Below, in pieces: positions 5,252 to 63,204 of a stretch of DNA of 64,000 nt. Both the position numbers and the translations under genes were made by a program. A model generated the notes under the pieces. It did no database searches. It had not been told where the DNA came from and was given only the letters and a program-made list of their open reading frames with translations. Source of the stretch: Squalus acanthias (lineage: Eukaryota). Each line of letters begins with the position of its first letter. Position 1 is the stretch's first letter. The DNA is taken from NCBI GenBank assembly GCA_030390025.1, contig CM059432.1, positions 48,114,001 through 48,178,000 of the forward strand. The letters are read 5' to 3'.

Positions 5252-5564
5252 TGTAAGGGGGCGTGTCTCAGATGGTGCTGGTGCGAGGTTAGGCCTTCAT
5301 TGCCTATACTATTGCTTGCTCTGGTCTCCGGCCAGCCTTTTTGCAATAAGCACCTGTGAGTGGTTCGACCCACTCGCCCTTACGGTTCTGACACCTGGAC
5401 TTAGATGCAAGGAGCAGTAATGCAGAGAAAAACTCAAATAGACCCGGTTGAATAGTACAAAATGAAATCTTTATTGCATGGCGTCTAAAATCATGAAATA
5501 CATGTCATAGGCGCAAATCAAAGAGAGTACAAATATACACACATTCATAAAGCTTGGTCTATGG
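5252..5564 (-). mobile_element. LTR copy (U5 end) of the gag/env element family, truncated by the gap
   Basis: Starts TGTAAGGGG and is colinear with 33834-34590 (excluding the SINE) and 42322-42630. It interrupts the LINE at GAAGGACAAGG. Confidence 0.9.
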
Positions 5565-7490: not shown

Positions 7491-8051
7491 GGGCTTTTCT
7501 TTCACAGGCTGTTGTCGGGAGCGACGAGACTGGAGGTCCTGTGAGTATTTGAACTCACTTTCGCGGGCTTTTCTTTCACAGGCTGTTGTCGGGAGCGACG
7601 AGACCGGAGGTCCTGTGAGTATTTGAACTCACTTTCGCGGGCTTTTCTTTCACAGGCTGTTGTCGGGAGCGACGAGACCGGAGGTCCTGTGAGTATTTGA
7701 ACTCACTTTCGCGGGCTTTTCTTTCACAGGCTGTTGTCGGGAGCGACGAGACCGGAGGTCCTGTGAGTATTTGAACTCACTTTCGCGGGCTTTTCTTTCA
7801 CAGGCTGTTGTCGGGAGCGACGAGACTGGAGGTCCTGTGAGTATTTGAACTCACTTTCGCGGGCTTTTCTTTCACAGGCTGTTGTCGGGAGCGACGAGAC
7901 TGGAGGTCCTGTGAGTATTTGAACTCACTTTCGCGGGCTTTTCTTTCACACGCTGTTGTCGGGAGCGACGAGACGGAGGTCCTGTGAGTATTTGAACTCA
8001 CTTTCGCGGGCTTTTCTTTCACAGGCTGTTGTCGGGAGCGACGAGACCGGA
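7491..8051 (+). repeat. Tandem array of ~7.6 near-identical 74-bp monomers forming the CR1 5' end
   Basis: Units start at 7491, 7565, 7639, 7713, 7787, 7861, 7935 and 8008 (partial). There are no spacers. Confidence 0.95.
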
Positions 8052-8482
8052 AGCGGACCAGGTGGGAAGCACCCAGGTGAACGGCATTTAAGGAGGGTGG
8101 TGGCTTAAACCCGAGTTCAGGAACTCCCACCCGCCCTCCTCCTCTAACCTACTAGTCTTTTAGCAGTCTAAAAACAGAGGTCACAAATTTTTTGGTCTCA
8201 GTTTCTTTTCAGCAGGGCAGGAACCGGGAGGAGCGGGAAGTCGGTGTAGGACCAAGGAGACACAAGACCGGGAAGTCAGCGAAAGACCAGGGAGGTAAGA
8301 CTAACTGGTAAGTACTTTCCTCAAACCTTCCTAGAAAGTAAAACTAAAACTAGTGGGATTTGGTTAGTTTAAAAAGGAATAAGAGGAGTACAGTATACAT
8401 TGGTCTAAGTAAGCTTCGGGAAAACAAAAGTCAATAAATAAACTAAAACTAGAAAATTAAAAAGTAATATAAGGGTTAAGTC

Positions 8483-9430
8483 ATGGCAGTAGAGCTCGGA
8501 CCTGTGTCATGCTCCTCCTGTAACATGTGGGAAATCAGGGACGCTTCCTGTGTCCCTGACAACCATGTGTGCGGGAAGTGTGTCCAGCTGCAGCTCATGT
8601 GGGACCGCATGACGGCCCTTGAGCTGCGGATGGACTCACTTTGGAGCATCCACGATTCTGAGAGGGTTGTGGATAGCACATTTAGTGAGTTGGTCACACC
8701 GCAGGTTAAGGCCAGCGTAGATAGTACATGGGTGACCAAAAGGCAGAGCAAGGGCAGGAAGGTAGTGCAGAAATCCCCTGGGGTTGTCTCCCTTAGCAAC
8801 AGGTTCACCGCCTTAGGTGCTGTTGTCGGGGGGGATGACTCATCGGGGGAAGGCACCAGCAGCCAGGCTCATGACACCATGACTGGCTCTGTTGCAAAGA
8901 AGGGAGGGAAAAAGAGTGGCAGGGCTATAGTAATAGGGGATTCGATTGTAAGGGGAATAGATAGGGGTTTCTGTGGTCGCGACCGAGACTCCAGGATGGT
9001 ATGTTGCCTCCCTGGTGCAAGGGTCAAGGATGTCTCGGCGCGGGTGCAGAACATTCTGGAGGGGGAGGGGGAACAGCCAGTTGTCGTGATACATGTTGGT
9101 ACCAACGACGTAGCTAAAAAAAGGGAAGAGGTCCTACAAGTAGAATTTAGGGAGTTAGGAGCCAAGCTAAAAAGTAGGACCTCGAAGGTAGTAATCTCTG
9201 GATTACTACCAGTGCCACGTGCTAGTAAGAGTACAGAGAACAGGATAGTTAGGCTAAATACGTGGCTTGAGCAGTGGTGTAAGAGGGAGGGTTTTAAATT
9301 TTTGAGGCATTGGAACCAGTTTTGTGGTAGGTGTGACCTATACAAAAGGGACGGTCTACACCTGTGCAAAGATGGAACTGATGTTCTCGGGGTAATTTTT
9401 GATAAAGCAGTTCGGGAGCATTTAAACTAG
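8483..9430 (+). CDS. CR1 ORF1p: Cys-pair zinc finger, coiled coil, SGNH/GDSL esterase domain
   Basis: Intact 315 aa with CSSC...CGKC, IVIGDSIVR, IHVGTND and DGLHL motifs. Confidence 0.9.
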   Translation: MAVELGPVSCSSCNMWEIRDASCVPDNHVCGKCVQLQLMWDRMTALELRMDSLWSIHDSERVVDSTFSELVTPQVKASVDSTWVTKRQSKGRKVVQKSPGVVSLSNRFTALGAVVGGDDSSGEGTSSQAHDTMTGSVAKKGGKKSGRAIVIGDSIVRGIDRGFCGRDRDSRMVCCLPGARVKDVSARVQNILEGEGEQPVVVIHVGTNDVAKKREEVLQVEFRELGAKLKSRTSKVVISGLLPVPRASKSTENRIVRLNTWLEQWCKREGFKFLRHWNQFCGRCDLYKRDGLHLCKDGTDVLGVIFDKAVREHLN

Positions 9431-9504
9431 TATGGCAGGGGGCTAGAAACCTATGTAGTGAAATAGAGGAAAGTGAAAGGCAGACAGAAATAAATGGTAA
9501 AAGG

Positions 9505-12372
9505 GTGAGGAACAAAAAACAAAGGGCCAAACTAATTCATAAAAAATGTGAGCATAAAAAAAGCCTGAGGGTTTTATACCTTAATGCGAGAAGCATCAGG
9601 AACAAGGTAGATGAATTAGCTGTGGAAATAAAGGTTAATAATTATGATCTAATTGGGATTACGGAAACATGGTTGCAGGGTGAGCAGGGCTGGGAGCTTA
9701 ACATACAGGGGTATTCAGTATTTAGGAAGGATCGACAAAAAAGAAAGGGAGGAGGGGTAGCATTGCTGGTAAAAGAGGGGATAAATGCAATTGAAAGGAA
9801 GGATATTAACTCAGTTAATACAGAATCTATATGGGTGGAGCTAAGAAATAGCGAGGGGAGAAAAACATTATTAGGAGTGGTATATAGGCCTCCAAATAGT
9901 AAAATAGAGGTTGGGGAGGGCATCACGAGGGAAATTAGAGAAGCGTGCAATAAGAGCACAGCTGTCATCATAGGTGACTTTAACTTACATATAGATTGGG
10001 CTAGCCTAATCAGTAAAAATAATGAGGAGGAGGAATTCCTTGAGTGTTTAAGGGATGGTTATCTGGATCAATATGTCGAGGAACCAACTCGGGAACAGGC
10101 TATATTGGACTGGGTACTGTGCAATGAGAAGGGACTAATTAGTAATCTTGTTGTACGGGGACCCTTGGGTCAGAGCGATCATAACATGATCGATTTCTCA
10201 CTCGAAATGGAGAGCGAAGAAATTGACTCAGAGACTAAGGTCCTGAATTGAAACAAGGGGAATTATGATGCCATTAGACGGGAACTGAGTAGGTCTGATT
10301 GGACAACGTTCCTGGGAGGACTGGAGGTAGATAAACAATGGCAAGCATTTAAAGATAGAATGACAAAATTGCAAAAATTGTTTATACCAATCTGGCATAA
10401 AAGGAAATCTAAAAAGGTGACTCAACCGTGGATAACAGGGGAAATTAGAGACAGCATAAAATCCAAAGATAGGGCGTATAAAATAGCCAAAAAAAGCGCC
10501 AGAGCGGAAGATTGGGAACAGTTTAAGATAGAGCAAAGGAGGACAAAGGGCTTAATCAAGAGGGGCAAAATAGCTTACGAAAGCAAGCTGGCGGAAAATA
10601 TAAAAACTAACTCCAAAAGCTTTTATAAGTATATCAAGAGGAAAAGACTGGTGAAAACCAAAGTTGGTCCATTGCAGTCAGATACGGGGGAATATATAAC
10701 GGGAAATAAGGAAATGGCAGACCAACTAAATGCATACTTTGGGTCAGTCTTTACGAAGGAAGACACAAAAAACCTCCCTGGGATATCGGGAAAAATAGGG
10801 ACATCGGCAAAGGAGGAACTGACGCAAATCAATATCTCTAAGGATATGGTGTTAAGGAAGCTAAAGGGATTGAAGGCGGACAAATCCCCAGGGCCTGATA
10901 ACATGCATCCTAGGGTACTGAAGGAGGTGGCCCTAGAGATAGCGGATGCACTAAGTATGATTTTTCAGAATTCATTAGACTCGGGAACAGTGCTCATGGA
11001 TTGGAGGGTAGCTAACGTTACCCCACTATTCAAAAAGGGGGGTAGGGAAAAAGCAGGTAATTACAGACCTGTAAGCCTTACATCAGTTGTGGGCAAAATG
11101 CTGGAGTCCATCATTAAGGATGAAATAGCGGAGCACTTAGCAAATGGGGACAGGATAGGACAGAGTCAACATGGATTTACAAAGGGTAAATCGTGCTTGA
11201 CTAATCTATTGGAATTTTTTGAGGGAGTAACTGGTAAAATAGATGGGGGAGAGCCAGTAGATGTGGTGTACCTGGACTTCCAAAAGGCCTTCGATAAGGT
11301 CCCACATAAAAGATTAGCATGGAAAATTGAAGCTCATGGGATAAAGGGGAAAGTATTGACGTGGATAGAGAACTGGCTGTCAGATAGAAAACAGAGAGTT
11401 GGAATAAACGGCTCATTTTCTGAATGGCAGGCAGTAACAAGTGGGGTACCACAGGGATCTGTCCTGGGTCCCCAGCTGTTCACAATTTACATTAATGACC
11501 TGGATCAGGGAGTCGGATGCAGCATTTCCAAATTTGCAGACGACACTAAACTAGGAGGGGGGGTGGGCTCAGAGGAGGAGACCAGGAAGCTCCAGAGCGA
11601 TTTGGACAGACTGGGTGATTGGGCGGATAAATGGCAGATGCACTATAATGTGGACAAGTGCGAAGTTATCCACCTTGGGTGCAGGAACGGGAGGGCAAAT
11701 TATTATTTAAATGGCAATAAATTGGGAGAGGGGGAAATACAGAGAGACCTGGGTGTTCTTGTACACCAGTCACTGAAGGCGAGCATGCAGGTGCAACAGG
11801 CGGTCAAGAAGGCAAACGGTATGCTGGCCTTCATAGCAAAAGGGTTGGAATACAGGAACAGGGATACCTTGCTGCAGCTGTACAGGGCACTGGTGAGACC
11901 ACACCTCGAGTACTGTGTACAGTTTTGGTCGCCTCATCTGAGGAAAGATGTTCTTGCCATGGAGGGGGTGCAGCGGCGATTCACCAGGCTGATACCAGGA
12001 ATGGCGGGATTGACCTATGAGGAGAGACTATGTAGTTTAGGGATGTACACACTGGAGTTTAGAAGATTGAGAGGGGACCTCATAGAAGTGTATAAAATTC
12101 TGACAGGTCTAGACAGACTAGATGCAGAAGGAATGTTTCCCTTGGCGGGTGAGAACAGAACTAGAGGACATAATTTAAGGATAAGGGCTAAACCATTTAG
12201 GACAGAAATGAGGGGGAATTTCTTCACTCAGAGGGTGGTGAACCTGTGGAACTCATTGCCACAGAGGGCAGTGTACGCCAGCTCATTAAATATATTTAAG
12301 AGGGAATTAGATATATTTCTACAGGCAAAAGGGGTTAAGGGTTACGGAGAGAAGGCAGGGACGGGATACTGA
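9505..12372 (+). pseudogene. CR1 ORF2p (APE endonuclease + reverse transcriptase) with one premature TGA at 10249-10251
   Basis: ORFs 9505-10251 and 10360-12372 share a frame. Motifs LNARSI, GITETW, GDFN, SDH, YLDFQKAFDKV, GVPQGSVLGP, KFADD. The paralog at 29763 reads VLNLNKGNY across the stop. Confidence 0.92.
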
Positions 12373-13764
12373 ATTGGAGGATCAGCCATGATCTCATTAA
12401 ATGGCGGAGCAGGCTCGAAGGGCCGGATGGCCTACTCCTGCTCCTATCTTCTATGTATCTATGTATCTATGTAAGAAGAATTGAAAAAGTGAATATTTTA
12501 GTTTGTCACTGTAAAGCAAAAAAATAGGACTCTACTATATTTTGACTTTGAGTTTGGAGAGATACTATATAATATATACTTGAAAAACTGATAAGAAATA
12601 TCTATATCTCACTCGTCTTTTTATCACATAATCATGTTATAGGAGGGCAATTTATTTACCCTACTTCTATCAACCCGAACATACCTCCCCACTTTTCCAG
12701 GAATTAAACTTGAATCCAAACGGCAAAACTCAACATTGGAAGCAGAAGATATGGGGCCCAAAACTCCAATCAGGAGCTGGGCAGAACAAAAGCAGATTGC
12801 TTCTATGGGAACCGGAAAATGGAGCGGAACCCGGTTCCTCCAAGATTCAGTATTGTTCGAGCAGCTGAGCAATTATCTGGTGGGAGCGAGAGGGCGAATC
12901 TTCCAACCACACCCCCTCACGCCAAGGGCGTATTTTCAGAAGAGGCCCCAGGTTACCCAGGGAATTCTGCTCAGTATATCATTAGCAGGCCTCCGTACAA
13001 CACTCGCCAGCTGAGACCCCAGAAAAGTCTCTAGAAGTCTTACAGTTAAAATTAAAGTAACTAGTCCTGGAGGGGATTGAGTATCATAACTTTAGTGACC
13101 CAGCACTCTCTTAGGAGCAATATTTCAATTATTTTCCTCTTTACTTTCGGCCCTTCTTTGGCACTGTTCCCATGTTCCTGGCTGCTGTCAGGGCAGGCGA
13201 TACTGATGGACCCTTACAGGCAAGAGTCGGACACTGAGTATGCAAAGTGGCCTATCCCCGCAATTTAAGACAGGTCTGGGTCTCCCTGCATGGGCGGACT
13301 TAGAGCCGGCTCCACCGCACTTCTGCTGGTGGAGTGGCCCAAATGAAATTTCATAAACATTTCAATTTATAACATTTTAAGTGACAACTATCTTTTATAT
13401 ATTGGCGTGCTTGCAAGGATATGTTCCTTTACCCTTTTGTCTCCTTTATTTAATTTCTTTTCTCCAAAGGGCCTTGCGATGTTTTGTACATTAAAGACGT
13501 TATATAAATGTAACTTGTTGCTGTTTTGTTTTGACATGGGCTGTGGTTTATTACAGTTACAGGAAATCATGACAGCTGTTTCGCTAAAAAAAACCTGTTG
13601 AGTTCCTTCTCTAATTACTAAAACAAAATTATAGCTCTGAGTTCCAACAGATGAGTAAGGAGTTTCCTGAAAGACTTGAAGTATGATTCTTTGTGATGAA
13701 GGGCTGCAAATAATGACTTTCTGCAGTGTAATTTTTCACATGTTTGTAACTGTGACTGAAGCAA

Positions 13765-29264: not shown

Positions 29265-32200
29265 TTAACAGGCGTGATCCACGAGCAGCGTGGACCCCAT
29301 GGACGAGCACTTTGGAGGGGGAGGGCGAAAACGGGATGAGGTCCTAAAAGCAGAATATAGGGAGTTAGGAGGTAAATTAAAAAAGAGGACCTCAAAAGTA
29401 GTAATCTCAGGATTGCTACCAGTGCCACGTGCTAGTCAGAGTAGAAATAGGAGGATATTTTAAATGAATACGTGGCTAGAGGAATGGTGCAAGGGGGAGG
29501 GATTCAAATTCCTTGGACATTGGAACCGGTTCTGGGGGAGGTGGGACCAGTACAAACGGGACGGTCTGCACCTGGGCAGGGCCGGGACCGATGTCCTAGG
29601 GGGAGTGTTTGCTAGTGCTGTTGGGGAGGGTTTAAACTAAAGTGGCAGGGGGTTGGGAACCTGAGCAGGGAGACAGAGGAAAGGGAAATAAGGATAAAAT
29701 CTAAAGACAGGAAGGAGAAAAACAAAAGTAGAAGACAAAGAACTCAACGGTTTAAATCAAACATGGTCATAGTAAATAATAATTCATATAGGTCTGAAAG
29801 CGTTAAAAAAATAAGCCTGAAGGCTTTGTGTCTTAATGCAAGGAGCATTCGGAACAAGGTGGATGAATTAGCTGCACAAATAGAGGTAAATGAATACGAT
29901 TTGATTGGGATTACAGAAACATGGCTCCAGGGGGGCCAAGGCTGGGAACTCAACATCCAGGGTTATTCAATATTTAGGAAAGATAGGCAAAAAAGAAAGG
30001 GAGGTGGGGTAGCATTGCTGGTTAAAGAGGGGATTAACACAATTGAAAGGAAGGATATTAGCTCTGATGATGCGGAATCTGTATGGGTAGAACTGAGAAA
30101 TAACAATGGGCAGAAAACGTTAGTGAGAGTGGTATATAGAACTCCAAACAGTAATACGGAGGTTGGGGACGGCATTAAAAGGGAAATTCGAGAAGCATGC
30201 AGTAAGGGCACAGCAGTCATCATGGGTGACTTTAATCTACATATAGATTGGGCTAACCAAATTAGTAAAAATACTGTGGAGGAGGAATTCCTAGAATGTT
30301 TACGAGATGGTTTTCTGGAACAATATGTCGAGGAACCAACCAGAGATCAGGCCATCTTAGACTGGGTATTATGTAACGAGAAAGGATTAATTAGCAATCT
30401 TGTTGTACGAGGCCCCTTGGGTCAGAGTGATCATAATATGATAGAATTCTTCATTAGGATGGAGAGTGAAGTAGTTGAATCAGAGACTAGGGTCCTGAAT
30501 TTAAATAAAGGAAACTACGATGGTATGAGGCGCGAATTGGGTAGGATTGATTGGGGAATGTCACTCAAGGGGTTGACGGTGGATAGGCAATGGCAAACAT
30601 TCAAAGACTGCATGGATGAACTACAGAATTTGTACATCCCAGTGTGGCATAACAATAAAACAAAAAGGGTGACTCAACCGTGGCTAACAAGGGAAATTAG
30701 GGATAGCATAAGATCCAAGGAGAGGGCATATAAATTGTCTAGAAAAAGCGGTAGCCCTGAGGATTGGGAGCAGTTTAGGATTCAACAAAGGAGGACAAAG
30801 GGATTAATTAAGAAGGGGAAAATAGAATATGAAAGTAAGCTTGCTGGGAACATAAAAACTGACTGTAAGAGCTTTTATAGATATGTGAAGAGAAAAAGAT
30901 TAGTGAAATCAAGTGTAGGTCCCTTGCAGTCAGAAGCGGGGGAAGTTATAATGGGGAACAAAGAAATGGCAGCCCAATTAAATGCATATTTTGGTTCTGT
31001 CTTCACAAAGGAGGACACAAATAAGCTCCCAGAGATGTTGGAGAACATACGGTCTGATGAAAGGGAGGAACTGAAAGAAATCAGTATTTGCAGCGAAATG
31101 GTGTTAGGGAAATTGACGGTATTGAAGGCCGATAAATCCCCAGGGCCTGATAATCTACATCCTAGGGTACTTAAGGAAGTGGCCCTAGAAATAGTAGATG
31201 CATTGCTGATCATCTTCCAACATTTGATGGAATCTGGAACTGTACCCATGGATTGGAGAGCAGCTAATGTTACCCCACTATTCAAAAAGGGTGGTAGAGA
31301 GAAAACGGGGAATTACAGACCGGTAAGCCTGACATCGGTAGTGGGGAAAATGCTAGAGTCCATTATAAAGGATGTAATAGCTGAGCATTTGAAAAACAGT
31401 GACAGGATCGGACAAAGTCAACATGGATTTACAAAAGGTAAATCGTGCTTGACTAATCTACTGGAATTTTTTGAGGATGTAACTGGGAAAATAGATAAGG
31501 GAGAACCAGTAGATGTGGTGTATTTGGACTTTCAAAAGGCTTTCGATAAGGTCCCGCATAAGAGATTAGCGGGTAAAGTTAAGGCACATGGGATTGGGGG
31601 CAAGGTATTGACTTGGATAGAGAACTGGTTGGCGGACAGAAAGCAGAGAGTAGGAATTAATGGGTCTTTTTCCGAGTGGCAAGCAGTGACTAGTGGGGTA
31701 CCGCAGGGATCGGTCCTTGGACCCCAGCTATTCATAATATACATTAATGATCTAGATAAGGGAATTAAATGTAATATCTCCAAGTTTGCAGACGACACAA
31801 AGCTGGGTGGGAGTGTGTGCTGCGAGGAGGATACCGAGAAACTCCAGGATGATCTGGACAGGTTGGGTGAGTGGGCAGAAGCATGGCAGATGCAATATAA
31901 CGTGGATAAGTGCGAGGTTATCCACTTTGGTGTCAAAAACAGAAAGGCAGACTATTATCTGAATGGCAATAGATTGGGAGAAGGGGAAGTGCAACGAGAC
32001 CTGGGTGTCCTTGTGCACCAGTCGCTGAAAGTAAGCATGCAGATGCAGCAGGCGGTGAAGAAGGCAAATGGTATGTTGGCCTTCATAGCGAAAGGGTTTG
32101 AGTATAGGAACAGGGATGTCCTGCTGCAGTTGTACAGGGCCTTGGTGAGACCACACCTTGAGTACTATGTGCAGTTTTGGTCGCCTTATCTGAGGAAGGA

Positions 32201-32725
32201 TGTTCTTGCCATGGAAGGAGTTCAGCGAAGATTCACAAGGCTGATACCTGGGATGGCAGGAATGACATATGAAGAGAGATTGGGTCGATTGGGCTTATAC
32301 TCGCTGGAGTATAGAAGAATGTGAGGGGATCTCATCGAAACATATAAAATTCTGACAGGTCTGGACAAACTAGATGCAGGAAGAATGTTCCCGATGGTCG
32401 GAGAGTCCAGAACCAGGGGTCATAATCTACGGATAACGGGTAAACCATTTAGGACAGAAATGAGGAAGAATTTCTTCACCCAGAGAGTGGTGAACCTGTG
32501 GAATTCTCTACCACAGAAGGTAGTTGAGGCCAAGTCATTAAATATATTCAAGGATGAGTTAGATATATTTCTTAAAGCTAAAGGTATCAAGGGATATGGG
32601 GAGAAGGCAGGTACAGGGTACTGAGTTTAGATGATCAGCCATGATCTCATCGAATGGCGGAGCAGGCTCGAGGGGCCGAATGGCCTACTCCTGCTCCTAT
32701 CTTCTATGTTTCTATGTTTCTATGT
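29265..32725 (+). mobile_element. 5'-truncated CR1 LINE
   Basis: 3' half of the ORF1 esterase region, ORF2, 3' UTR and (TTCTATGT)n tail. Confidence 0.93.
29763..32624 (+). pseudogene. CR1 ORF2p (APE-RT) with a single late nonsense codon at 32322-32324
   Basis: 853-aa ORF continues in frame into 32385-32624. The RRM*GD position corresponds to RRLRGD in the 10360 copy. Confidence 0.92.
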
Positions 32726-33833: not shown

Positions 33834-35960
33834 TGTAAGGGGTTCGGTCGTGGGTGCTTGTGCGGGGTTAAGCCTTCGTCGCCTAATCCTATTGCTTGCT
33901 CTTGTCTCCGGCCAGCCTTGTTGCAATAAGCACCTGTGAGTGGTTCGACCCACTCGCCCTTACGGTTCTAACACTGGACTTAGGTGCAAGAGCAGTAATG
34001 CAGAGAAAACTCAAATAGACCCGGTTGAATAGTACGAAATGGAAATCTTTATTGCATAAGGGCAACACGGTGGCATAGTGGTTAGCACTGGTGCCTCACA
34101 GCGCCAGGGACCCGGGTTCGAATCTGGCCTCGGGTGACTGTCTGTGTGGAGTTTGCACATTCTCCCCGTGTCTGCGTGGGTTTCCTCCGGGTGCTCCGGT
34201 TTCCTCCCACAGTCCAAAAATGTGCGGGTTAGGTTGATTTGGCTATGATAAATTGACCCTTAGTGTTAGGGGGGGATTAAATATGTGGGGTTACGGGGAT
34301 AGGATAGGAAGGGATATGTTAGGGGGAATTAAATACGTGGGGTTACGGGGATAGGGTGGGATATGTGTTGGTGCAGGCTCGATGGGGATTCTGGTGAGAA
34401 AGCAGGGACAGGGTACTGGATTTGGATGATCAGCCATGATTGTATTGAATGGTGGAGCAGGCTCGATGGGCCGAATGGCCTACTCCTGCTCCTAGTTTCT
34501 ATGTTTCTATAACGTCCAAAATCATGAAGTACATGTCATAGGCACAAATTAATGACAGTACAAGTATACATACATTCATAAAACTTGGTCTAGGGTAATG
34601 AGGAACGCACGGCACATCGTAAAAAGGGGAACACATTATATTTATCCTTAATAAAACCACCCTCCCCTATCAATACCTACACTAATCTAGATTTGTAGGA
34701 TCGAGAAACATGCTCACCACTCGTGATACTTCGGAGAATTTTAAAGTGAGGCGCTCGGCTCGTTTCGCTGCAGCGCCTGACTGTCACGTGTTGAAAAGGG
34801 TCTCTGTACCCCACTTGTTTATCTGCTCTGCTCCGGCTAGCAGGCTGGATCGTCTGTTGTCATGAAGAACTGTGTAGAGCTCGGACACTTGGTAGAATTC
34901 AAACAAGAGTCTTCCTGTACCAGTTCGTGTAGTATTCGGTAAAACTCGAAGATGAGGTTTTACCGGTTCGTGCAGTAACTTATAGAGTTCAAAAATGGTC
35001 TATATATTTTCGGGCGCGGTCGGGGTTTACTGACCGCGGCGGCACGTGTAGTCTTCTTCTTCTCTTCTCGTCTCGTCTCGTCTCGTCTCTTCTGGCCTTC
35101 GGGTCCAGACACCGTTTACCGACCCTCGGGATGGTGCACCCGATCACTTGCCTTTGTTGAGGCGGCTCGTTCCGTTTGAGCTCCAACCAACATTCGAAGT
35201 CCAGCTCTCAAAAGAGCTTCAGCAGTCAGCAACAAGACAAGAGGTCGACTCCAAGTGGATCAGCGGAATAAGAGCCCGGAGAATAAGAGTTCAGCCCGAG
35301 TCAAAAGTCAGCAGAGATAAGAGACCGATGGACATTTGTTCAGTTAAGTTATAGTGCTGGGTTCCCTTATCTCCCGCCCAAATCTTAATGTTCATCTTTT
35401 GTAAAATCTTGGCGCTCAAAATTCCCAGTATGGGGTGATTCTGTCTGTAATGGGTTTCGGTAACACTTGTAACTGGCCAAATACCCGTTAATGTTTTTCC
35501 CATTGTGGAACCGGCTAGGAGCCTCCCTGACGGGGTTTTGGGGGCCTCCGAATACTTGTGTAAGCACCCGAGAATGGCTCTCTCATTGTAGAGCTGTGGG
35601 GAATTTGCGTATTGATGTATCTGGATGGGCCTTTGATTGCCCAGTACAATAGTCCTTACTTGTGCATGGAAAACGATTCCAGCACTTATATCTCTTGCTA
35701 TTGTGTCGAATGCAGACAGGTCGCATCCTGTCTTTATCAATGTTTGCTGAGTATTATCCAATCTTATACTGAAATGTTTATTCGAACGCCATCTTGTCTG
35801 CCCACTGAAAATTCTGGAAACTTCTGCCACGAGGTGTGGCGGCCATTTTACAGGCTTCTTGTGTCCCTTTTAATCATGACAGCATTTCGTTTAAATAAAC
35901 TGCTTAAACGAATCTGTATTTCTCTCGTTATTTTGAATCGTGATATTTGCGAACTTTACA
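33834..35960 (-). mobile_element. LTR-A: LTR with 4-bp TSD AGTG, carrying a V-SINE insertion
   Basis: TGTA...TACA termini. AGTG at 33830-33833 and 35961-35964. The flanks rejoin as an old CR1 (CATTATTCTAGTG|AATCTACACTGC). Confidence 0.95.
34060..34508 (+). mobile_element. V-SINE (HE1-like) with CR1-derived 3' tail
   Basis: A box TGGCATAGTGG, B box GGTTCGAATCT, V-domain-like GTGGAGTTTGCACATTCTCCCCGTGTCTGCGTGGGTTTCCTCCGG. Tail matches the CR1 3' UTR. ATAA is duplicated, and the insertion is absent from LTR-B. Confidence 0.9.
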
Positions 35961-36590
35961 AGTGAATCTACACTGCATCCTTACCATGGATCAATTATAT
36001 TTTCTTTAATGGGGTGCTGAGAACTGCATGCAATACTCCAACTGTGGCTCAACCAAAGTATTGTACAAATTCAACATCACTTCCTTCCTGTGTAGGTGTC
36101 AACCTTGGCTCAGTGGTAGCACCCTTTATCTCTAAATCAGAAGGTTGTGGGTTCAAGTCCCACCCCAGAGACATGAACACATAATCTAAGCTGACATCTC
36201 AGTGCAGGACTGAGGGAGTGCTGCACTTTCAGAAGGTGCCAGTTGTTAAGATAAGACATTAAACCGAGAATGGTAAGTCTGCCCTCTAAGGTAGGTGTAA
36301 AAGATCCTCTGGCATTAATTTGAAAATGAACAGGGAAGTTCTCCCTGGTTTCTGAGGGATCACCACTATTCTTTGTATAAGCACTTTCTTTTATTTTTGT
36401 ACTATCTCTCACCTCTTTTGTTGACCAAGGTTGTTTAATTACACAAGTAGAGCTCTTGCCCTTTAGGGAGTACAGGACTTGTATTCTACCAAATACTAAT
36501 TTGAACACCTCCCACTGTTTATCTGAAGTTTTATCCATTAACTATTCTCCCCAGTTTACAGAGGTCAATTTCTGCCTCATCCTTTCAAAG
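35961..36590. repeat. ~630-bp host flank duplicated at 43991-44620
   Basis: Near-identical (about 3 differences by eye). Old CR1 plus Deu-SINE-like head. Confidence 0.95.
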
Positions 36591-36765
36591 GCAGCCAAAG
36601 TCAAGGAAAAAAATAATCCAACAACTATTTTAAAAATACAAAAGTTAAAATAACCAAAAACAACTCTTTTAAAATACAAAGTTCCAAACTTGGTTACATA
36701 TCTTCATAACTAACAATCAATTACAAAACACACATGGGAAAATGGAGCGGCGTCATCTTGGCCGT

Positions 36766-39104
36766 TTACGCGGCGCTTTCCTCGTGCACGCGCACGTAAC
36801 GTTCTCTCCACTCTCCTGTGTTCTCCTGCTTTGTGAGGCGCTTGCCTCTCTTGCAGTGCACGACCAATAGGTACACTACAATTATTACTTGGCACACAAC
36901 TAAAATGTGGGAGGCTATCCTAATCCATGAAGGCACTTCAATATTGGTGAACAGATCCCACCACGGTGGGATTACTATGTCTAGAATTTCTGTCCCTATC
37001 TCGACAGTCTTTTGTTCTAGGGTGTAAAAATGTTTTTGCGATACCGCGACGGCTTTCAAAAGCTTGGTGAGGTGTTCAGGGAGAGGGGGAATGATGTATC
37101 CGAAATGCGCGACGAATCGCTGCAAGTCGGTAAAATTCTCTTTTACTGTTAGATGAACAGTGGATGGTTCAGGGATCGGGACAATTCGCTGCTGTGCCAC
37201 TTGAACTTCAGCCCTGGGTTTAAAACAGAAACTGCTGTCACTCACCGGACACCGGCTACGGCTTCCATGCTGGTAGTGTTGCGCTGCAGTGGTAACGCAA
37301 TATGTTCCACCCCCTATGTATGCCACCTGCGGAGGCACATGATCTTGTGTCATTGCCTCCATGGTGCAATTCATGGGCTTGGCGCCAGCCGTTCTGAACC
37401 CGCATTGTGGTGTTAAAAAGGCATTCAAGTGCTGGGGACACAGTATCATGTGTGCTCCCCGGCCACGACAACCCGATAGGTCTGTACCTGTCATCGTTTG
37501 CTCCCAGCGGATGACGTAAGGTGGGACCGCTGCGTAGCGAATGTGGGCTCCCCCCTGAATGACACCAATGTTCTCCACCCGATACACCGGGGCGGGCTTT
37601 GCTGTGTCGCCCAAGACCGGCATACGTAGTACTATACCCATGATGGTATGGTTTGACCGTCCGCAGTCCACGGGGACTGGGTATGCTTCTGAGGCTAGCC
37701 TGAGCTGGCACGGGCTTAATGCATTCTGAAAAGGGTGGAGCGCCTGCAGGTGTTTGTTACTTATCCAGGACGGGACCAAACCTTGTTTTAAATCCTCCAA
37801 ATTACTGCGGCCCTCGCCTAGTAACCATGCCCCGTATAGTACGCACACCTCGTTCTGCGCAGCTTGATCGGATGCATTCCGATCTTCCCTAATCAGGGCA
37901 TTTACCATTCTCGAATGTTTCTCCAGCTCTGCTATAATTTCCTTTAAGTGTAGCGTCATGGCCTGGTCCTCATGTAACTCAGACCCTACTACCTTGTTTT
38001 CGCTTGTGAGGATGCTTTTTAATTGTGTTTTTAAACCATTGATCTGGGTCTGCAGCTCCACGTTGTCTAGAGCGTTGACCACAGATGTCCCTGTATTAAA
38101 GGCAGTGAACATGTCGTTCACAACACCCCTTCTTTGTCTCCCCACCTGACCCAAAACTTCGTGTGGTGTGGTGTACAAGCTTGTTTTGTCAATCTCTGCA
38201 AAATCAAACTCGTAGAATTGTCTAAACATGTTTGTCAACAGGACCTGGTACAATTGTTCCGTCTCTTTGGGGCACCACTCTGGCAACCGCACCTCGGTGA
38301 GATTTAAAATCACCGAGGCCACCGCGTAATGTACCCCCTGAAATAGTATCTGGTCTGTTGGGACCAGTACCAAACCATTCCAGGGCCCCTTAGTGGTTTT
38401 AGGGCACCCTTCCTCCTGAGCCAAAACCACCGGAATCGTGGGCGGAGCCTTGCGTGGGCGCGTGATGAGTTCAGTGGCGTTTACCGGGATCGGAGAGTAT
38501 GGAGCTCCGCACCCCCTGGTGCTGACATCCCACCTCATCCCTTTCCCGTTATCCTGCCACTGGTTTACGAAAAATATGGATATACCCTTGGGGCAAACGT
38601 ACTTCGATCCCCACATACAAACATATATTCCCACCATTTGTCCCAACAGACTTTCAATTGTCCGTTAGTCCCCGTAATTGTCCGATGGGTATTGTTACCC
38701 AATCGCTCCCACTCGACCGAGGAATTTCTCATATTCTTGCTCAATTTCCGTAACCACCACCATCGGCTCAATGGGACCTTCCCATTGCATGTCAAACAAA
38801 TCCTTTTGCCGACGGTGACGCTGATTCTGGGTGCAATGATTCTCACTCTGGGGCACATCAAAGAAGTCTCTTTGTAGGCAAATCCGGATGCGCTGGAGTA
38901 TTCCATTGAATTCGTTCCCAGCCATCCCGGCCACCTTCCCTTGTGGAAATAAGTGGCGGTCTCCTCAGCCTTTCACTCCCCGGTCCCATCCGTCGCGATG
39001 GGGGCCGTGTCCCCGGAGCAACCAAACACAACGACATCCTTGGTGAGGCCCCGATAGGCCAATCCATATCCGATCGCTGCGAGCACTATCAGAATCCGTT
39101 CCAT
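36766..39104 (-). pseudogene. env: Envelope glycoprotein: signal peptide, Ig-like domain, F-type class I fusion protein, TM anchor (one TGA and one frameshift)
   Basis: ATG at 39104 reads MERILIVLAAIGYGLA. TGA at 38973-38975 is in frame with ORF 38565-38906, then a frameshift near 38640 leads into the 626-aa ORF. That ORF has furin site RQRR (38128-38139), heptad repeats, a Cys-rich region and TM IASHILVVCQVIIVVYLLVVHC. Confidence 0.85.
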
Positions 39105-39380: not shown

Positions 39381-40493
39381 TCAAATTCTGCGAAGGCTGT
39401 TGCGAGCTTTTCCCAACGGTGGGAGGGCACTGACCCCTTCCTTTGATCCACCGCAGCCTGTCGCTGCTGCGCTGGGACTGGGATCTCCCTGGGCTGCCTT
39501 GACCTTGAACTTACGCCTGGGGGCGCGCGGGGGACTTGACCACACCTTCCTGGGCTTGGGTGTCCGACCTGACCTACGGAGGGCTACATTGGGCAAGATT
39601 TCCAGGGCCGACGGACCGGGTACTGAGACTTCCACCGTCGCGGCCTGTGGTCCCACCACAGCCGCTGGCTCCGTCTCCCCTGGCTCCGCCTCCCTGAACT
39701 CGGGATTTGCAGTTTCTGGTACCACCCTACTTGACCCAGTATGTGGTCCTCCACTCACAATCCCTACCTCCCCCAAGGGCAAGACTTCTAAGGCTGACGG
39801 ACCGGGTTCCGAGACTTCCACCGTCACGACCTGTGGTCCTACCACAGCCGCTGGCTCCGTCTCCCCTAGCTCCGCCCCCCTGGGCTCGGGACCTGCAGTT
39901 TCTGATTCCACCCTGTGTGGATCTCCGCTCACAATCCCTATCTCCCCTACGCTTGAGTCGAGGGCGAACCTTTCGTCCTCCGATCTCAGCACCTCTCCGA
40001 TCGGGTCACTATCTTGGTCGAGCTCCTCGAGCTCTTCCTCATCGGAATCCCAACCCCAAGAAAAGATCTTACACTTTCCTAGAATGTCCTCTCCCCTCAC
40101 GCAGGCTGCTTTACCGGTCTGTGTGCCCTGCGGTCCGACCCGGGGCTGCGAGTCCCCACTCGCAGGTCTGGCCCCTGTGGTTGGCCCCTGTGCACCCGGC
40201 TTATACAACTTGCACTGGTTTAAATCCTCAGACTCCCTGCTTCTGGCTACCCTGCAGGCTGCCTTTATATCTCTAAGCTGCCCTTCTAGCCCATCTATTT
40301 TCCCCATTAAGCGGGCGTTCTCCTCCCGTAAGGCCTGCTCTCTAAGCTGCCCTTCTAGCCCGTCTACTTTCCCCATTAAGCGGGCGTTCTCCTCCCGCAG
40401 GGCCTGCTCTTTTAACCTGGCCTCCTTACAGGAGACCCCCTCCTGTGCGCGTTTTCCTAGGGGACACAGGTAGGCAGGCTGCACCGGTTCTAG
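39381..40493 (-). CDS. ORF-X: unknown coiled-coil/acidic/repeat/basic protein in frame with gag
   Basis: 370 open codons directly after the gag TAA, with no ATG at the start of the frame. Frame-preserving internal duplications (69 bp; 58/62 aa). Confidence 0.65.
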   Translation of the reverse strand, partial: LEPVQPAYLCPLGKRAQEGVSCKEARLKEQALREENARLMGKVDGLEGQLREQALREENARLMGKIDGLEGQLRDIKAACRVARSRESEDLNQCKLYKPGAQGPTTGARPASGDSQPRVGPQGTQTGKAACVRGEDILGKCKIFSWGWDSDEEELEELDQDSDPIGEVLRSEDERFALDSSVGEIGIVSGDPHRVESETAGPEPRGAELGETEPAAVVGPQVVTVEVSEPGPSALEVLPLGEVGIVSGGPHTGSSRVVPETANPEFREAEPGETEPAAVVGPQAATVEVSVPGPSALEILPNVALRRSGRTPKPRKVWSSPPRAPRRKFKVKAAQGDPSPSAAATGCGGSKEGVSALPPLGKARNSLRRI

Positions 40494-42317
40494 TTATTGG
40501 GTACTGGTGGACGGGGTCATGACATCTGTGAGGCCGGTAGCGACTGCCACCCTTCCTTGCGAAATCATTAGGGTCCGCATGGCTCCCAACATTGATTCTA
40601 TCGCATCGGGATGGATAGGCACACCAGCTCCTTTCTCAGAGACAGGCGCTTGGGTTCGGGCTGCGGGAATTTTATCCCTGGACTCCTTCCAGGGGTTCCT
40701 ACAGTTCTTACGCCAATGACCTGTCTTCCCGCACCCGTAACAAGCACCACTGGCCTGTGGGGCGCGGTTTCCCTCCTGATGCCACTCCTTTTGAGCCGGG
40801 GCTGCGGGCCGTGCCTCATGCACCTTTCCCTTAAGGGGACGCGCTCCCGTGCTCCTAGTGTTCCGATACCCTATCGTGAGTCGATTTAGGACCGACTCCT
40901 CTGTTGTGGCGGGGTTAGTGGGATCAAACCACACTTTGGCCTGCTCCCTGACGGCTGGCAAACTGTTGGCTCCTAAACACCTGAGCCAGTGAGTTAAACC
41001 GACACCGTTCAAATAGGCGCGCGCTGGCGCACCTGGGCAGCTACGCTGGTATACTGGCCACAGCCTGTCGGCAAAAACCTTCGGGGGTTCTCCCTCCATC
41101 TCCACTGTCTGACCCAATCTAACGAACGGACCTTTGTCATCCGCCCCCAACACTTCTAGGACCTATTCCCTTAACTCCTCATAGGTCCTATTTTCCCTCT
41201 TGCTCTCGTCTGAGAGACACTGGAGGATCGAGCTATCTAATGAGAACAGCAACATTTTTGTCTTTTCCGCATCGTCGCAGCCATTAATTGCTGCGGTCTG
41301 TTCTACCTCCCTGAAGTGTACGGAAGGGTCGTCTGACTCAGACAGCTTCTGCACGTGACTAATCATTGCTCTCAGCTGGTGTGAGCTGTGAGGCAACACA
41401 AGCTGGTTCAGGACATCCCCGTCCTCCCCATTGGCTCCGTTCGGGCCCCTCTTGTGACCTGTGAGCGGACACAACGGTCCCGGCTTCGACACTACCTTTG
41501 GGGATTGTCCTACCTCGGGGACCTCCTCTTCTATTTCCACCACTTCCTCCCTTACCCAGGTTGCCGAATATCTGGGTGGCGCGGAGGGCGCAGTGGCAAA
41601 TACCTCCTCTGCTTTGTTTGGTAGGGATTTGGGGAATTCCCTACCCACCTGTGGCTGGTGTGCTGACGGGCTGATGAGGCACACCATGCCGTTTGCCTTA
41701 TTCAGGGCCTCTCTAAGGTTCCGTATCTCCTTCAGGCAAACACTGTGGTCGGCTCCCTCATGCTTATCTTCGAGGGCCATCTTATATGCCGCCCTAACTC
41801 CCTTCAAGCTTTCTTCTTGGGCTCTTATCTGGGTAGCTAGGCGGGCACACTGTTCTCTAATCCTACCCTCGTTTAACTTCGCTTCCGTGACCTGACACTC
41901 TAGGTAATCTATTTTAGCCTCATGGTGGTTGGCTACTATCTGGCGTTCCTGATGTAACGCATTCAAGGATGCGATGAGTTTTTGTCCTCCCGCGACCTTT
42001 TCCTCCATCTCAACTCCCAATTCCCTGATCTGAGCTGCCTGTGCTACAATGACCTGGTCCGAAAGTTGGACTTGCTTCTTGTAGCACATCAGCCAGACCG
42101 CTTTCTCTACCGACTTCTTGTGCTCTTTACTGCCTGTCCATTTGATGGCTGCATCTAGCGGACGCTTATCCATCAGCAGGTCACTTATCCATCTTTTGGT
42201 TAAGTTAACCTTCCCAAATACATAGTCGGCTATCCTCTCATCCATCACATTTCGCCCATTCACACCAGGGTCTAAAGCATTACTCTCTCGCTGCCAGTGT
42301 ACCTTCGTGGTCGCCAT
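40494..42317 (-). pseudogene. gag: Gag (coiled coil - capsid - CCHC nucleocapsid), ~607 codons, one in-frame TAG at 41163-41165
   Basis: ORFs 41163-42317 and 40494-41153 share a frame. MHR-like QTVEMEGEPPKVFADRLW. Zinc knuckle CYGCGKTGHWRKNC (C-X2-C-X4-H-X4-C) at 40701-40742. Confidence 0.88.
42299..42316 (-). promoter_or_regulatory. Primer-binding site, tRNA-Arg(UCG)-type
   Basis: TGGCGACCACGAAGGTAC lies 5 nt after the LTR end. It is complementary at 17/18 nt to the vertebrate tRNA-Arg-UCG 3' end ...GUCCCUUCGUGGUCGCCA, recalled from memory. Confidence 0.75.
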
Positions 42318-42321
42318 TTTC

Positions 42322-43990
42322 TGTAATGGGTTCGGTCGTGGGTGCTTGTGCGGGGTTAAGCCTTCGTCGCCTAATCCTATTGCTTGCTCTGGTCTCCGGC
42401 CAGCCTTGTTGCAATAAGCACCTGTGAGTGGTTCGACCCACTCACCCTTACGGTTCTAACACTGGACTTAGGTGCGAGAGCAGTAATGCAGAGAAAACTC
42501 AAATAGACCCGGTTGAATAGTACAAAATGGAAATCTTTATTGCATAACGTCCAAAATCATGAAGTACATGTCATAGGCACAAATTAATGACAGTACAAGT
42601 ATACATACATTCATAAAACTTGGTCTAGGGTAATGAGGAACGCACGGCACATCGTAAAAAGGGGAACACATTATATTTATCCTTAATAAAACCACCCTCC
42701 CCTATCAATACCTACACTAATCTAGATTTGTAGGATCGAGAAACATGCTCACCACTCGTGATACTTCGGAGAATTTTAAAGTGAGGCGCTCGGCTCGTTT
42801 CGCTGCAGCGCCTGACTGTCACGTGTTGAAAAGGGTCTCTGTACCCCACTTGTTTATCTGCTCTGCTCCGGCTAGCAGGCTGGATCGTCTGTTGTCATGA
42901 AAAACTGTGTAGAACTTGGACACTTGGTAGAATTCAAACAAGAGTCTTCCTGTACCAGTTCGTGTAGTATTCGGTAAAACTCGAAGATGAGGTTTTACCG
43001 GTTCGTGCAGTAACTTATAGAGTTCAAAAATGGTCTATATATTTTCGGGCGCGGTCGGGGTTTACTGACTGCGGCGGCACGTGTAGTCTTCTTCTTCTCT
43101 TCTCGTCTCGTCTCGTCTCTTCTGGCCTTCGGGTCCAGACACCGTTTACCGACCCTCGGGATGGTGCACCCGATCACTTGCCTTTGTTGAGGCGGCTCGT
43201 TCCGTTTGAGCTCCACCCAACATTCGAAGTCCAGCTCTCAAAAGAGCTTCAGCAGTCAGCAACAAGACAAGAGGTCGACTCCAAGTGGATCAGCGGAATA
43301 AGAGCCCGGAGAATAAGAGTTCAGCCCGAGTCAAAAGTCAGCAGAGATAAGAGACCGATGGACATTTGTTCACTATAGTTATAGTGCTGGGTTCCCTTAT
43401 CTCCCACCCAAATCTTAATGTTCATCTTTTGTAAAATCTTGGCGCTCAAAATTCCCAGTATGGGGTGATTCTGTCTGTAATGGGTTTCGGTAACACTTGT
43501 AACTGGCCAAATACCCGTTAATGTTTTTCCCATTGTGGAACCGGCTAGGAGCCTCCCTGGCGGGGTTTTGGGGGCCTCCGAATACTTGTGTAAGCACCCG
43601 AGAATGGCTCTCTCATTGTAGAGCCGTGGGGAATTTGCGTATTGATGTATCTGGATGGGCCTTTGATTGCCCAGTACAATAGTCCTTACTTGTACATGGA
43701 AAACGATTCCAGCACTTATATCTCTTGCTATTGTGTCGAATGCAGACAGGTCACATCCTGTCTTTATCAATGTTTGCTGAGTATTATCCAATCTTATACT
43801 GAAATGTTTATTCGAACGCCATCTTGTCTGCCCACTGAAAATTCTGGAAACTTCTGCCACGAGGTGTGGCGGCCATTTTACAGGCTTCTTGTGTCCGTTT
43901 TAATCATGACAGCATTTCGTTTAAATAAACTGCTTAAACGAATCTGTATTTCTCTCGTTATTTTGAATCGTGATATTTGCGAACTTTACA
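42322..43990 (-). mobile_element. LTR-B, 5' LTR (1669 bp)
   Basis: TGTA...TACA termini. TATATA at 43036-43041 and AATAAA at 42536-42541 on the minus strand. ~99% identical to LTR-A apart from the SINE. Confidence 0.95.
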
Positions 43991-45326
43991 CGTGAATCTA
44001 CACTGCATCCTTACCATGGATCAATTATATTTTCTATAATGGGGTGCTGAGAACTGCATGCAATACTCCAACTGTGGCTCAACCAAAGTATTGTACAAAT
44101 TCAACATCACTTCCTTCCTGTGTAGGTGTCAACCTTGGCTCAGTGGTAGCACCCTTTATCTCTAAATCAGAAGGTTGTGGGTTCAAGTCCCACCCCAGAG
44201 ACATGAACACATAATCTAAGCTGACATCTCAGTGCAGGACTGAGGGAGTGCTGCACTTTCAGAAGGTGCCAGTTGTTAAGATAAGACATTAAACCGAGAA
44301 TGGTAAGTCTGCCCTCTAAGGTAGGTGTAAAAGATCCTCTGGCATTAATTTGAAAATGAACAGGGAAGTTCTCCCTGGTTTCTGAGGGATCACCACTATT
44401 CTTTGTATAAGCACTTTCTTTTATTTTTGTACTATCTCTCACCTCTTTTGTTGACCAAGGTTGTTTAATTACACAAGTAGAGCTCTTGCCCTTTAGGGAG
44501 TACAGGACTTGTATTCTACCAAATACTAATTTGAACACCTCCCACTGTTTATCTGAAGTTTTATCCGTTAACTATTCTCCCCAGTTTACAGAGGTCAATT
44601 TCTGCCTCATCCTTTCAAAGTCAGCCTTACCTAAATTTAAAACCTTGGTTCATGACTCACACTTCTCCCTTTCAAACCTAAGGATAATTCCGAGGATAGT
44701 TAGACTAAAACATTGTGTAGTTCCAAGAATATTCCTTATCTGCCTTTTTAATCTTCAACATTTAAAGGTTAAATTATTTCTGCAGCTGTTATCTGAAGGC
44801 GTGTATTTGAAAGCTGAAAAGGACATTCATAAAAGAGCTAAATAGCCACCTGTACAAAAACAATACTCAACTAAAAGAGGTGTCTTAATATACTTAAATA
44901 GGAAATGCATTTAGATTAAGAAACCAGCTGCTAATATGTGCCACAACTACAGCAAAATTAGACATTAGAAATATTTCATTGCGTTGTTTATGGGATAATT
45001 CATCAGTGGACTGAGGAGTGGAACAATCACACGCAGAATGTAATGCAGGAGCAGTGAATGGAGCAGTTAGGTGAAGTGGGAGCTGGAGCAAGGATTGACT
45101 GGGACACCAGACACCAAGGTGAATCTGGAATGGAATGGGGTCAGCTTACTGTTATCTGGTAACTGAGAATGACAAGGTGTTGGGCCTGAGGAGGGTGCAC
45201 AAATTCCTGGGGCTGAAGCCAGGAGTGGAGGCATTATTAAAGCTGAGACTGGGAACAGAGATGTTCCTAGGGTTGAGAACACAAACAGACGTGTTGCTAG
45301 AGCTGAGGATGGGAGTGGTACTGAAG

Positions 45327-61450: not shown

Positions 61451-63204
61451 TGTAAAGTTTCGCAATTATCGCGATTCGAAATAACGAGATAGAAGCAGAT
61501 TCGTTTGATCAGTTTATTTAAACGAAATGCTGTCATGATTAAACAGGACACAGAAGCCTGTAAAATGGCCGCCGCGCATCATGGCAGAAGTTTCCAGAAA
61601 CACAGTGGGCAGACAAGATGGCGTTCGAATAAACATTTTCAATATAAGACGGGGTCATACTCGATAAGCACTGATAAAGACAGGATGCAACCTATTTGCA
61701 TTTGTGACAATAGCAAAAGATACGAGTGCTGGAATCGTTTTCCATGCACAAGTAAGGACCATTGTACTGGGCAATCGAAGGCCCATCCAGACACATCAAT
61801 ACACAAATACCCCCACGGCTCTACAATGAGAGAGACATTGACGGGTGATTAAACAAGTATTCGGGGGCCCCCAAAACCAGTCAGGGAGACGATTCATACG
61901 ATCCTGGCTGGGTCAACAATGGGGAAAACATTAACGGGTAGTTGGCCAGTTTCAGGTGCTACCGAAACCCGTTAAAGACAAGAATCGCCCCATGCTGGGA
62001 GTTTTTGAGCGCCAATATTTCACAAAGGACAAACATTAAGATTTGGGCGGGAGATAAGGAAACACAGCACTATAACTATACTGAACAAATGTCCATCGGT
62101 CTCTTATCTCTGCTGACTCTTATTCTCCCGGCTGGCCTCTTATTCCCTTGATTCGACTCTTATTCTCCTGACTCGCTCGATCGCAGGCTGAAGCTCTTCT
62201 CTAGGGCTGGACTCTGTTGACTCTGGACTTTTAGCCGTACTGGACGGTTATTCGAATGTTGGGTGGAGCTCAATCGGAACGAGCTGCCTCGACAAGGGCA
62301 AGTGACCGGGTGCACCATCCCGAGAGTCGGTAAACGGTGTCTGGACCCGAAGGCCCAACAAGACAAGACGAAATGACAAGAAAAGAAGAAGAATCCACGT
62401 GCTGCCGCGGTCAGTAAACCCCGACCGCGCCCGAAAATATAGGACTCATTTCTTGAATTCTACGGGTTATTGCACGAATCGGTTTTGGGTCCATCGAATT
62501 CCTCATAACAACAAGAAAGACTCTTCATTGAATTCTACTGACAACTGGTGCCGGTACAGGAAGACTTTTCTTTGAGTTCTACAACCGGGCCCGAGTTCTG
62601 TCGAGTTCTTCATGACAACGGGGAGCCCGGCCTGCTTGCCGCAGCAGCGAAGATAAACAAGTGAGGTACAGAGACCCCTCCAAACACGTGACAGTCAGGC
62701 GCTGCAGCGAACGAGCCGAGTGCCTCACTTAAAAATTCTCTGAAGTATCACGAGTGGTGAGCATGTTTCCCGATCCTACAAATCTAGATGTAGTGTAGGT
62801 ATTGATAGGGGAGGGTGGTTTTATTAAGGATAAAGTATAATGTGTTCCCCTTTTTACGATGTGCCGTGCGTTCTTCATTACCATAGACCAAGCTTTATGA
62901 ATGTATGTATACTTGTACTCTCGTTAATTTGCGCCTATGACATGTACTTCATGATTTTGGACGCTATGCAATAAAGATTTCCATTTCGTACTATTCAACC
63001 GGGTCTATTTGAGTTTTTCTCTGCATTACTGCTCTCGCACCTAAGTCCAGTGTTAGAACCGTAAGGGCGAGTGGGTCGAACCACTCACAGGTGCTTATTG
63101 CAACAAGGCTGGCCGGAGACCAGAGCAAGCAATAGTATTAGGCAACGAAGGCCTAACCCCGCACCAGCACCGTCTGCGATACAAGCACGACAAAACCCCT
63201 TACA
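61451..63204 (+). mobile_element. Solo LTR (1754 bp) of the gag/env element family, TSD GAGC
   Basis: TGTAAAG...CCCTTACA termini. GAGC at 61447-61450 and 63205-63208. Diverged reverse complement of LTR-B. Confidence 0.95.

Follow-up and report, generated by a model that had tools for sequence, protein, structure and literature searches.

In foamy virus Env and in the paramyxo- and pneumovirus F proteins, a class Ib fusion core is cut by furin into two subunits (PMC11468914). The receptor-binding domain (RBD) of foamy Env is not of an immunoglobulin (Ig) fold, forms an insertion located upstream of the furin site and binds heparan sulfate, whereas the F proteins are described there as having no attachment module, and their Ig-fold domain II belongs to the core; receptor modules placed at the N-terminus of this scaffold, or inserted into it, have been discussed (PMC11468914). 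The Env of lokiretroviruses possesses a signal peptide, a basic cleavage site, a fusion peptide, a coiled coil and a transmembrane (TM) region (PMC7947760). On the other hand, RBD-C and the SIRP-like RBD of gamma-type Envs are IgV-like domains at the N-terminus of Env, and there is evidence for both RBD transfer and host capture among these proteins, including a SIRP-derived RBD (bioRxiv 2024.03.17.585361). Here we describe an env gene on the minus strand of a 64,000-nucleotide stretch of the Squalus acanthias genome (contig CM059432.1, positions 48,114,001 to 48,178,000; hereafter the window). We consider it probable that this locus is the broken env front end of a young, high-copy endogenous retrovirus, the intact copies of which encode a 783-residue protein with a probable Ig V/I-set domain, likely an attachment head, before a predicted paramyxovirus-F-type core.

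The env frame is broken in the window but continuous in other copies. The initial annotation proposed that the repair of one stop codon and one frameshift would join an upstream Ig-like stretch to the fusion open reading frame (ORF; 632 aa, 38664-36766) and yield a protein of approximately 780 aa. By minus-strand translation, the B-strand motif LxC (Cys codon at 38789) and the C-strand motif WWW (38762-38754) appeared in the same frame as the env start, and the F-strand motif GxYxC (38631-38617, with its Cys at 38619) in that of the fusion ORF; these are the pieces that the initial annotation had listed. The premature stop in the upstream frame is equally real; the codon is a sense codon in 27 of 29 other copies, and the same stop was found in the loci L003 and L013. 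The frameshift, placed near 38640, does exist but lies about 10 nucleotides away, and corresponds to a 13-nucleotide gap observed in none of the 29 other copies. Because of this gap, the earlier estimate of about 57 residues between the two cysteines was too short: they are residues 106 and 167 in open copies, 61 apart. In 19 of the 29 loci, the start region and the two Ig strands share a single frame with the beginning of the core, or this frame continues to the edge of the locus (10 of the 19; hand counts). The upstream frame is thus joined to the fusion ORF, and the intact copies read a protein of 783 aa in one frame.

Many copies are open. Among the 150 best-scored matches to the Ig stretch in the 3.7-Gb genome, which were chosen by score and hence biased to intact copies, 29 lie inside a stop-to-stop frame of 789 codons (hand count). 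Twelve longer genomic stretches, mostly picked for open frames, contained this frame in eight cases and a pol gene in four. The first searches returned 3,396 and 5,447 candidate matches, numbers that are not copy numbers, and the best 40 DNA matches (the window itself excepted) are 96-97% identical to the window stretch and about 13 nucleotides longer. In five copies, the two long terminal repeats (LTRs) show 98.2-99.0% identity to each other, and thus we regard the family as young. As for expression, no RNA data set was present among the listed holders of the Ig stretch; seven sequencing runs, of a kind that could only be guessed, contain it in short contigs.

In the open copies, Cys106, Trp115-117, Cys167 and the complete F-strand motif are arranged in the canonical order and spacing of Ig domains. 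When the N-terminal 221 aa of an open copy were shuffled 20,000 times, the pattern of B-strand Cys, C-strand Trp and F-strand motif never occurred (0 of 20,000), and the weaker pattern that the window shows occurred 6 times; both patterns were written after inspection of the sequence. In Pfam, Ig_3 was the best family for each of the seven sequences in a tight alignment, with a score of 17 bits, the gathering score being 30. The best PDB hit of the Ig profile was the IgV domain of CRTAM, matched over nearly its whole length with an E value of 0.052, and the structural matches of the predicted domain were tied among dozens of families of the Ig superfamily (IgSF). A single-sequence PDB search with a 135-aa piece gave only E values of at least 0.13, and a profile that included the flanks had no hit over the Ig stretch. 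The Ig stretch is under purifying selection: it is 64-66% identical between subfamilies in which synonymous sites are saturated, and the ratio of nonsynonymous to synonymous substitution rates (dN/dS; Nei-Gojobori method, few pairs) was 0.15 between two older copies (L066 and L067) and 0.05-0.26 among young copies. Altogether, the head module of env is probably of an Ig V/I-set fold, as predicted from motifs, profiles and the model.

Scores that stay below threshold throughout, together with low values of the predicted local distance difference test (pLDDT), would also suit a beta-sandwich born in the virus, without any capture from a host, the resemblance to an Ig domain being only the product of convergence or of a bias in the model. 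We find this improbable, as the Cys, Trp and F-strand motifs stand in an order and spacing that shuffling did not reproduce and separate methods agree on the same superfamily. The source of the domain is a different matter. No host IgSF protein was found at E<=0.001 in a search of 1.84 billion representatives, so the case for host capture is drawn from the fold and from precedent. The initial annotation had read the stretch as a captured IgSF module fused ahead of the fusion protein; the place of the module in the env frame is confirmed and its Ig fold is probable despite the Pfam score, but no donor was found for the capture, the CRTAM match being the best that the PDB profile search offered. 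The origin would be an old capture of a host IgSF domain, which has since diverged past tracing. Another reading takes the domain as a captured host IgSF ligand (CRTAM/nectin-like, or CD200- or SIRP-like), the role of which would be to dampen immune cells and not to mediate entry. The CRTAM IgV hit and the earlier case of an Env with a SIRP-like domain (bioRxiv 2024.03.17.585361) speak for such a ligand, but the similarity is not significant, the structural hits single out no IgSF family and no close host paralogue was found; we hold this reading to be improbable as well.

Downstream of the head, the ectodomain core was modelled with an F-like fold, and the layout is that of a class Ib fusogen. 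The furin motif RQRR (38139-38128, residue 327) is located ahead of the fusion-peptide helix, helices are predicted at residues 333-444 after the furin site, and a C-terminal TM stretch lies near 36920-36850, with a 19-residue hydropathy peak of 2.6 at residue 734. The predicted core fold and the two-subunit layout are those of foamy Env and paramyxo-/pneumovirus F. No Pfam family matched the core of the window ORF, and the 632-aa ORF had no match in a single-sequence PDB search. The core opens with the same G-P-x-x-G-[IV] motif in lokiretrovirus Env; however, 22 of the 23 lokiretrovirus consensus proteins (one of them partial) pass from a signal-peptide-like stretch directly to the core motif and bear no head (supplement of PMC7947760, by eye). 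The gamma-type Env has an unrelated fusion core, with CX6CC in TM and CXXC in the C-domain of SU; we detected no CX6CC motif in the protein described here, and its sole CXXC belongs to the B strand of the Ig domain. No donor could be traced for the present head. In BFVD, the Envs of the walleye epsilonretroviruses WEHV-1 and WDSV, which are longer (1159-1317 aa), matched the F-type model with E values of 2.2e-12 and 3.8e-9. Thus, there are fish retroviruses with long F-type Envs, and the two hits (Q9WHI8 and A4GTG3) suggest that F-type Envs are distributed more widely among fish retroviruses than in foamy viruses and lokiretroviruses.

A furin cut at RQRR would yield, on the trimer, a surface subunit composed of the arm, the Ig domain and the F2-like part. 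The Ig domain is basic (17 K/R vs 6 D/E) and, carried on a flexible Pro/Thr linker, may have a glycan or an adhesion molecule of the IgSF as its ligand; the head would then do the job of the separate H/HN/G protein of paramyxoviruses and of the inserted RBD of foamy viruses. Conservation within the head could be read otherwise. No part of the head is better conserved than the Ig domain (98-99% identity between young copies vs 93-96% for the arm), and the eight Trp residues and extra Cys residues (103, 153 and 175) of this domain could tie it to its neighbours, as if it were a structural cap or an intramolecular chaperone keeping the trimer in its pre-fusion state while the arm (aa 17-84, for which pLDDT is mostly below 50) or the core attaches. 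Nevertheless, the core does without a head in the 22 lokiretrovirus Envs and in the relatives P0039, P0050 and P0052, and a variable Pro/Thr linker separates the Ig domain from the core here. Thus, we regard the structural role as unlikely and retain the attachment head as the preferred reading.

The search of 1.84 billion representatives yielded 51 hits, the longer of which were examined. The closest named env relatives are those of a skate and sharks, and the same Ig head is also present in records of skate, sawshark and whale shark. The shared core begins at residue 20-23 in the three head-less relatives and at residue 150-238 in the others, which bear different heads. P0014 of the bamboo shark, named 'Ig-like domain-containing' in UniRef, possesses another head type with relatives in the Squalus genome; its single-sequence PDB search gave E values of at least 0.049, with antibody heavy chains in five of nine rows. 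The head of P0036 is V-set-like (Pfam E value of 0.045) but has no cysteine pair, and had no match in a single-sequence PDB search. A frog type and a Cys-rich type of head were found on the same core as well. In a midpoint-rooted tree of 14 core sequences with three long branches, from which fragments and L068 (no match to the core motif) were left out, the type with the Cys-rich head was sister to the family studied here with support values of 100/99, although no similarity between the two heads could be detected, and P0036 grouped weakly with the head-less P0039 (83/84).

Profile-profile comparison of five head types, P0014 being outside the run, found no significant mutual similarity (Probab of 2% or less, with very shallow alignments); P0001 and P0014 matched weakly at an E value of 0.02. 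On these comparisons, a single ancient Ig head that has since diverged is possible. Our tentative proposal, which we hold as somewhat less probable than not, is a large group of retroviruses of sharks and amphibians, little described so far, in which the F-type core serves as a chassis for exchangeable heads. Several Ig domains may have been acquired in independent events from adhesion or immune genes of the host (the one described here; that of P0014, L062 and L063; that of the frog P0020 and P0049; and the Cys-less V-set-like one of P0036), and sister lineages would carry a Cys-rich head or none.

Several further observations concern these relatives. Additional retrovirus families with the same F-type core reside in the Squalus genome (L062 at 7121-9472, L063 at 6649-7983, L064 and L068), each with its own pol (approximately 38% identical to the present one) and a different N-terminal head; the env of L062 is open over 784 codons. 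In frogs, the P0049 cluster of Mantella aurantiaca and P0020 of Pelodytes possibly have an Ig-like head on an F-type env, and many near-identical F-type env genes of this kind, of 677 aa, are annotated in a frog genome as uncharacterized proteins. Finally, P0004, P0005, P0012 and P0037 are pieces of the present env inside host gene models (Niban-like, zinc finger, cadherin and F-box) and are probably annotation chimeras.

As to the retrovirus group, full copies such as L041 encode a Pol in frame after the gag stop, comprising protease, reverse transcriptase (RT), tether, RNase H and integrase. Lokiretroviruses were detected in none of six chondrichthyan genomes (Wang and Han, PMC7947760). Their Pol likewise has a tether and a second RNase H, but this layout is shared by canonical retroviruses, and the F-like Env is shared by foamy and walleye viruses. 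Membership in lokiretroviruses, our first reading, was dropped: the lokiretrovirus RT rows read CPFG and IYVDD, against LPQG and QYVDD here, the latter agreeing by eye with snakehead retrovirus (SnRV) and other retroviruses. Troyka was also rejected, as the element here has TG...CA ends and a 4-bp target-site duplication. The RT is 44% identical to P0085, the RT of which was judged by eye to agree with the row of SnRV in the supplement, and amphibian and coelacanth Pols are closer (51-53% identical). In an RT tree built without a lokiretrovirus reference, the sequence was placed inside a clade of dual-RNase-H Pols (100/100) and outside a subclade of more distant Pols (100/98), in a polytomy with P0085. 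SnRV has a primer site for Arg-tRNA and a coiled-coil Gag. The primer site here is a 15-nucleotide complement to tRNA-Arg(TCG). The gag stop followed by in-frame pol and the single zinc knuckle of Gag are features of SnRV as well (PMC1224870, PMC13517186), and lineage I of the elephant shark CmiERV is SnRV-like (PMC4422223). No accessory ORF was seen after env in the present element. Altogether, the element is probably a basal SnRV-like retrovirus with an Env of the lokiretrovirus/foamy type.

As an insertion, the copy in the window is ordinary: it is dead, has lost most of pol, belongs to a very abundant endogenous retrovirus and lies LTR-bounded on the minus strand, and its own env protein cannot be made (Table 1). 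The two LTRs were found by self-comparison and inspection of the window; the 3' LTR contains an insertion of other repeats of about 450 bp (34060-34508) and is flanked on both sides by the 4-bp target-site duplication. The gag has a single internal stop (41163-41165). The terminal part of the 3' untranslated region is replaced by a copy of the host flank, and other copies of the element diverge from the window at about 36602. The layout of this repeat is compatible with unequal recombination or with a local duplication that followed insertion, and an assembly artefact is also possible.

Table 1. Positions of the features of the retroviral element in the window (LTR, long terminal repeat; TM, transmembrane stretch).
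Feature	Positions	Strand	Remark
5' LTR	42322..43990	-	ends TGTAA...TTACA
Primer-binding site, 15 nt	42302..42316	-	complementary to the 3' end of tRNA-Arg(TCG) including CCA, gene from the same genome
gag	40494..42317	-	one zinc knuckle and a long coiled-coil-like stretch (coiled coil by eye)
pol remnant, bulk of pol deleted	39381..40493	-	91% match between residues 79-370 and the C-terminal 292 aa of full Pol
env, whole	36766..39104	-	minus-strand translation
env start and signal-peptide-like stretch (aa 1-16)	39057..39104	-	hydrophobic stretch, same place in the divergent subfamilies L066 and L067
N-terminal arm (aa 17-84)	38853..39056	-	conserved in the family; 54-60% identity between distant subfamilies
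Premature stop of the window copy	38973..38975	-	in frame by translation
Probable Ig V/I-set domain (aa ~85-183)	38569..38852	-	Cys/Trp motifs, profiles and model
13-nt gap site	38628..38633	-	frame shift within the Ig domain; gap seen in 0/29 other copies
Linker (aa 184-237)	38407..38568	-	second half Pro/Thr-rich; among the least constrained parts, dN/dS 0.36-0.61
Predicted F-type (class Ib) fusion core	36766..38406	-	C-P...G-P-x-x-G-L start, furin site, helical repeats, TM, short tail
Host-flank copy, 636 bp	35961..36596	.	duplicates 43991-44626 (preceding the 5' LTR), 99.5% identical
3' LTR	33834..35960	-	98.3% identical to the 5' LTR apart from the insertion

The lack of most of pol is not peculiar to the window: the same was observed in eight of the 12 longer stretches (L031, L032, L034, L035, L037, L038, L040 and L042), several of them with an open env, which may represent a gag+env subfamily that is non-autonomous and presumably depends on Pol from elsewhere. 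The junction of the pol deletion carries a short, repeated piece of coiled-coil-like character. Elsewhere in the window, further LTR copies of the same family occur at 61451-63171 (plus strand; apparently a solo LTR) and 5269-5564, approximately 85% and 91-94% identical, respectively. LINE-like endonuclease-RT ORFs, of CR1 type by eye, are present at 29616-32624 (plus strand; 902 codons open at 29616-32324) and 9556-12478, and a tandem array of about seven near-identical copies of a 74-bp unit at 7417-8082.

The initial annotation called an Ig module unusual for a retroelement envelope. This holds in part: IgV-like N-terminal RBDs are known on gamma-type Envs, and what appears to be new here is the Ig head on an F-type Env, of which we found no description in the literature searched (subscription papers and bioRxiv supplements were outside its reach). 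The fusogens of the F type need a separate or inserted attachment module, and an N-terminal Ig domain would be a further solution beside the foamy RBD and coronavirus S1. If true, the Ig head would extend the capture of domains by Env from the gamma-type to the F-type envelopes. One genome holds candidate copies in the thousands and a large number of open frames, and relatives are found in skate, sawshark and whale shark, so that the evolution of a head can be traced on a fixed core.
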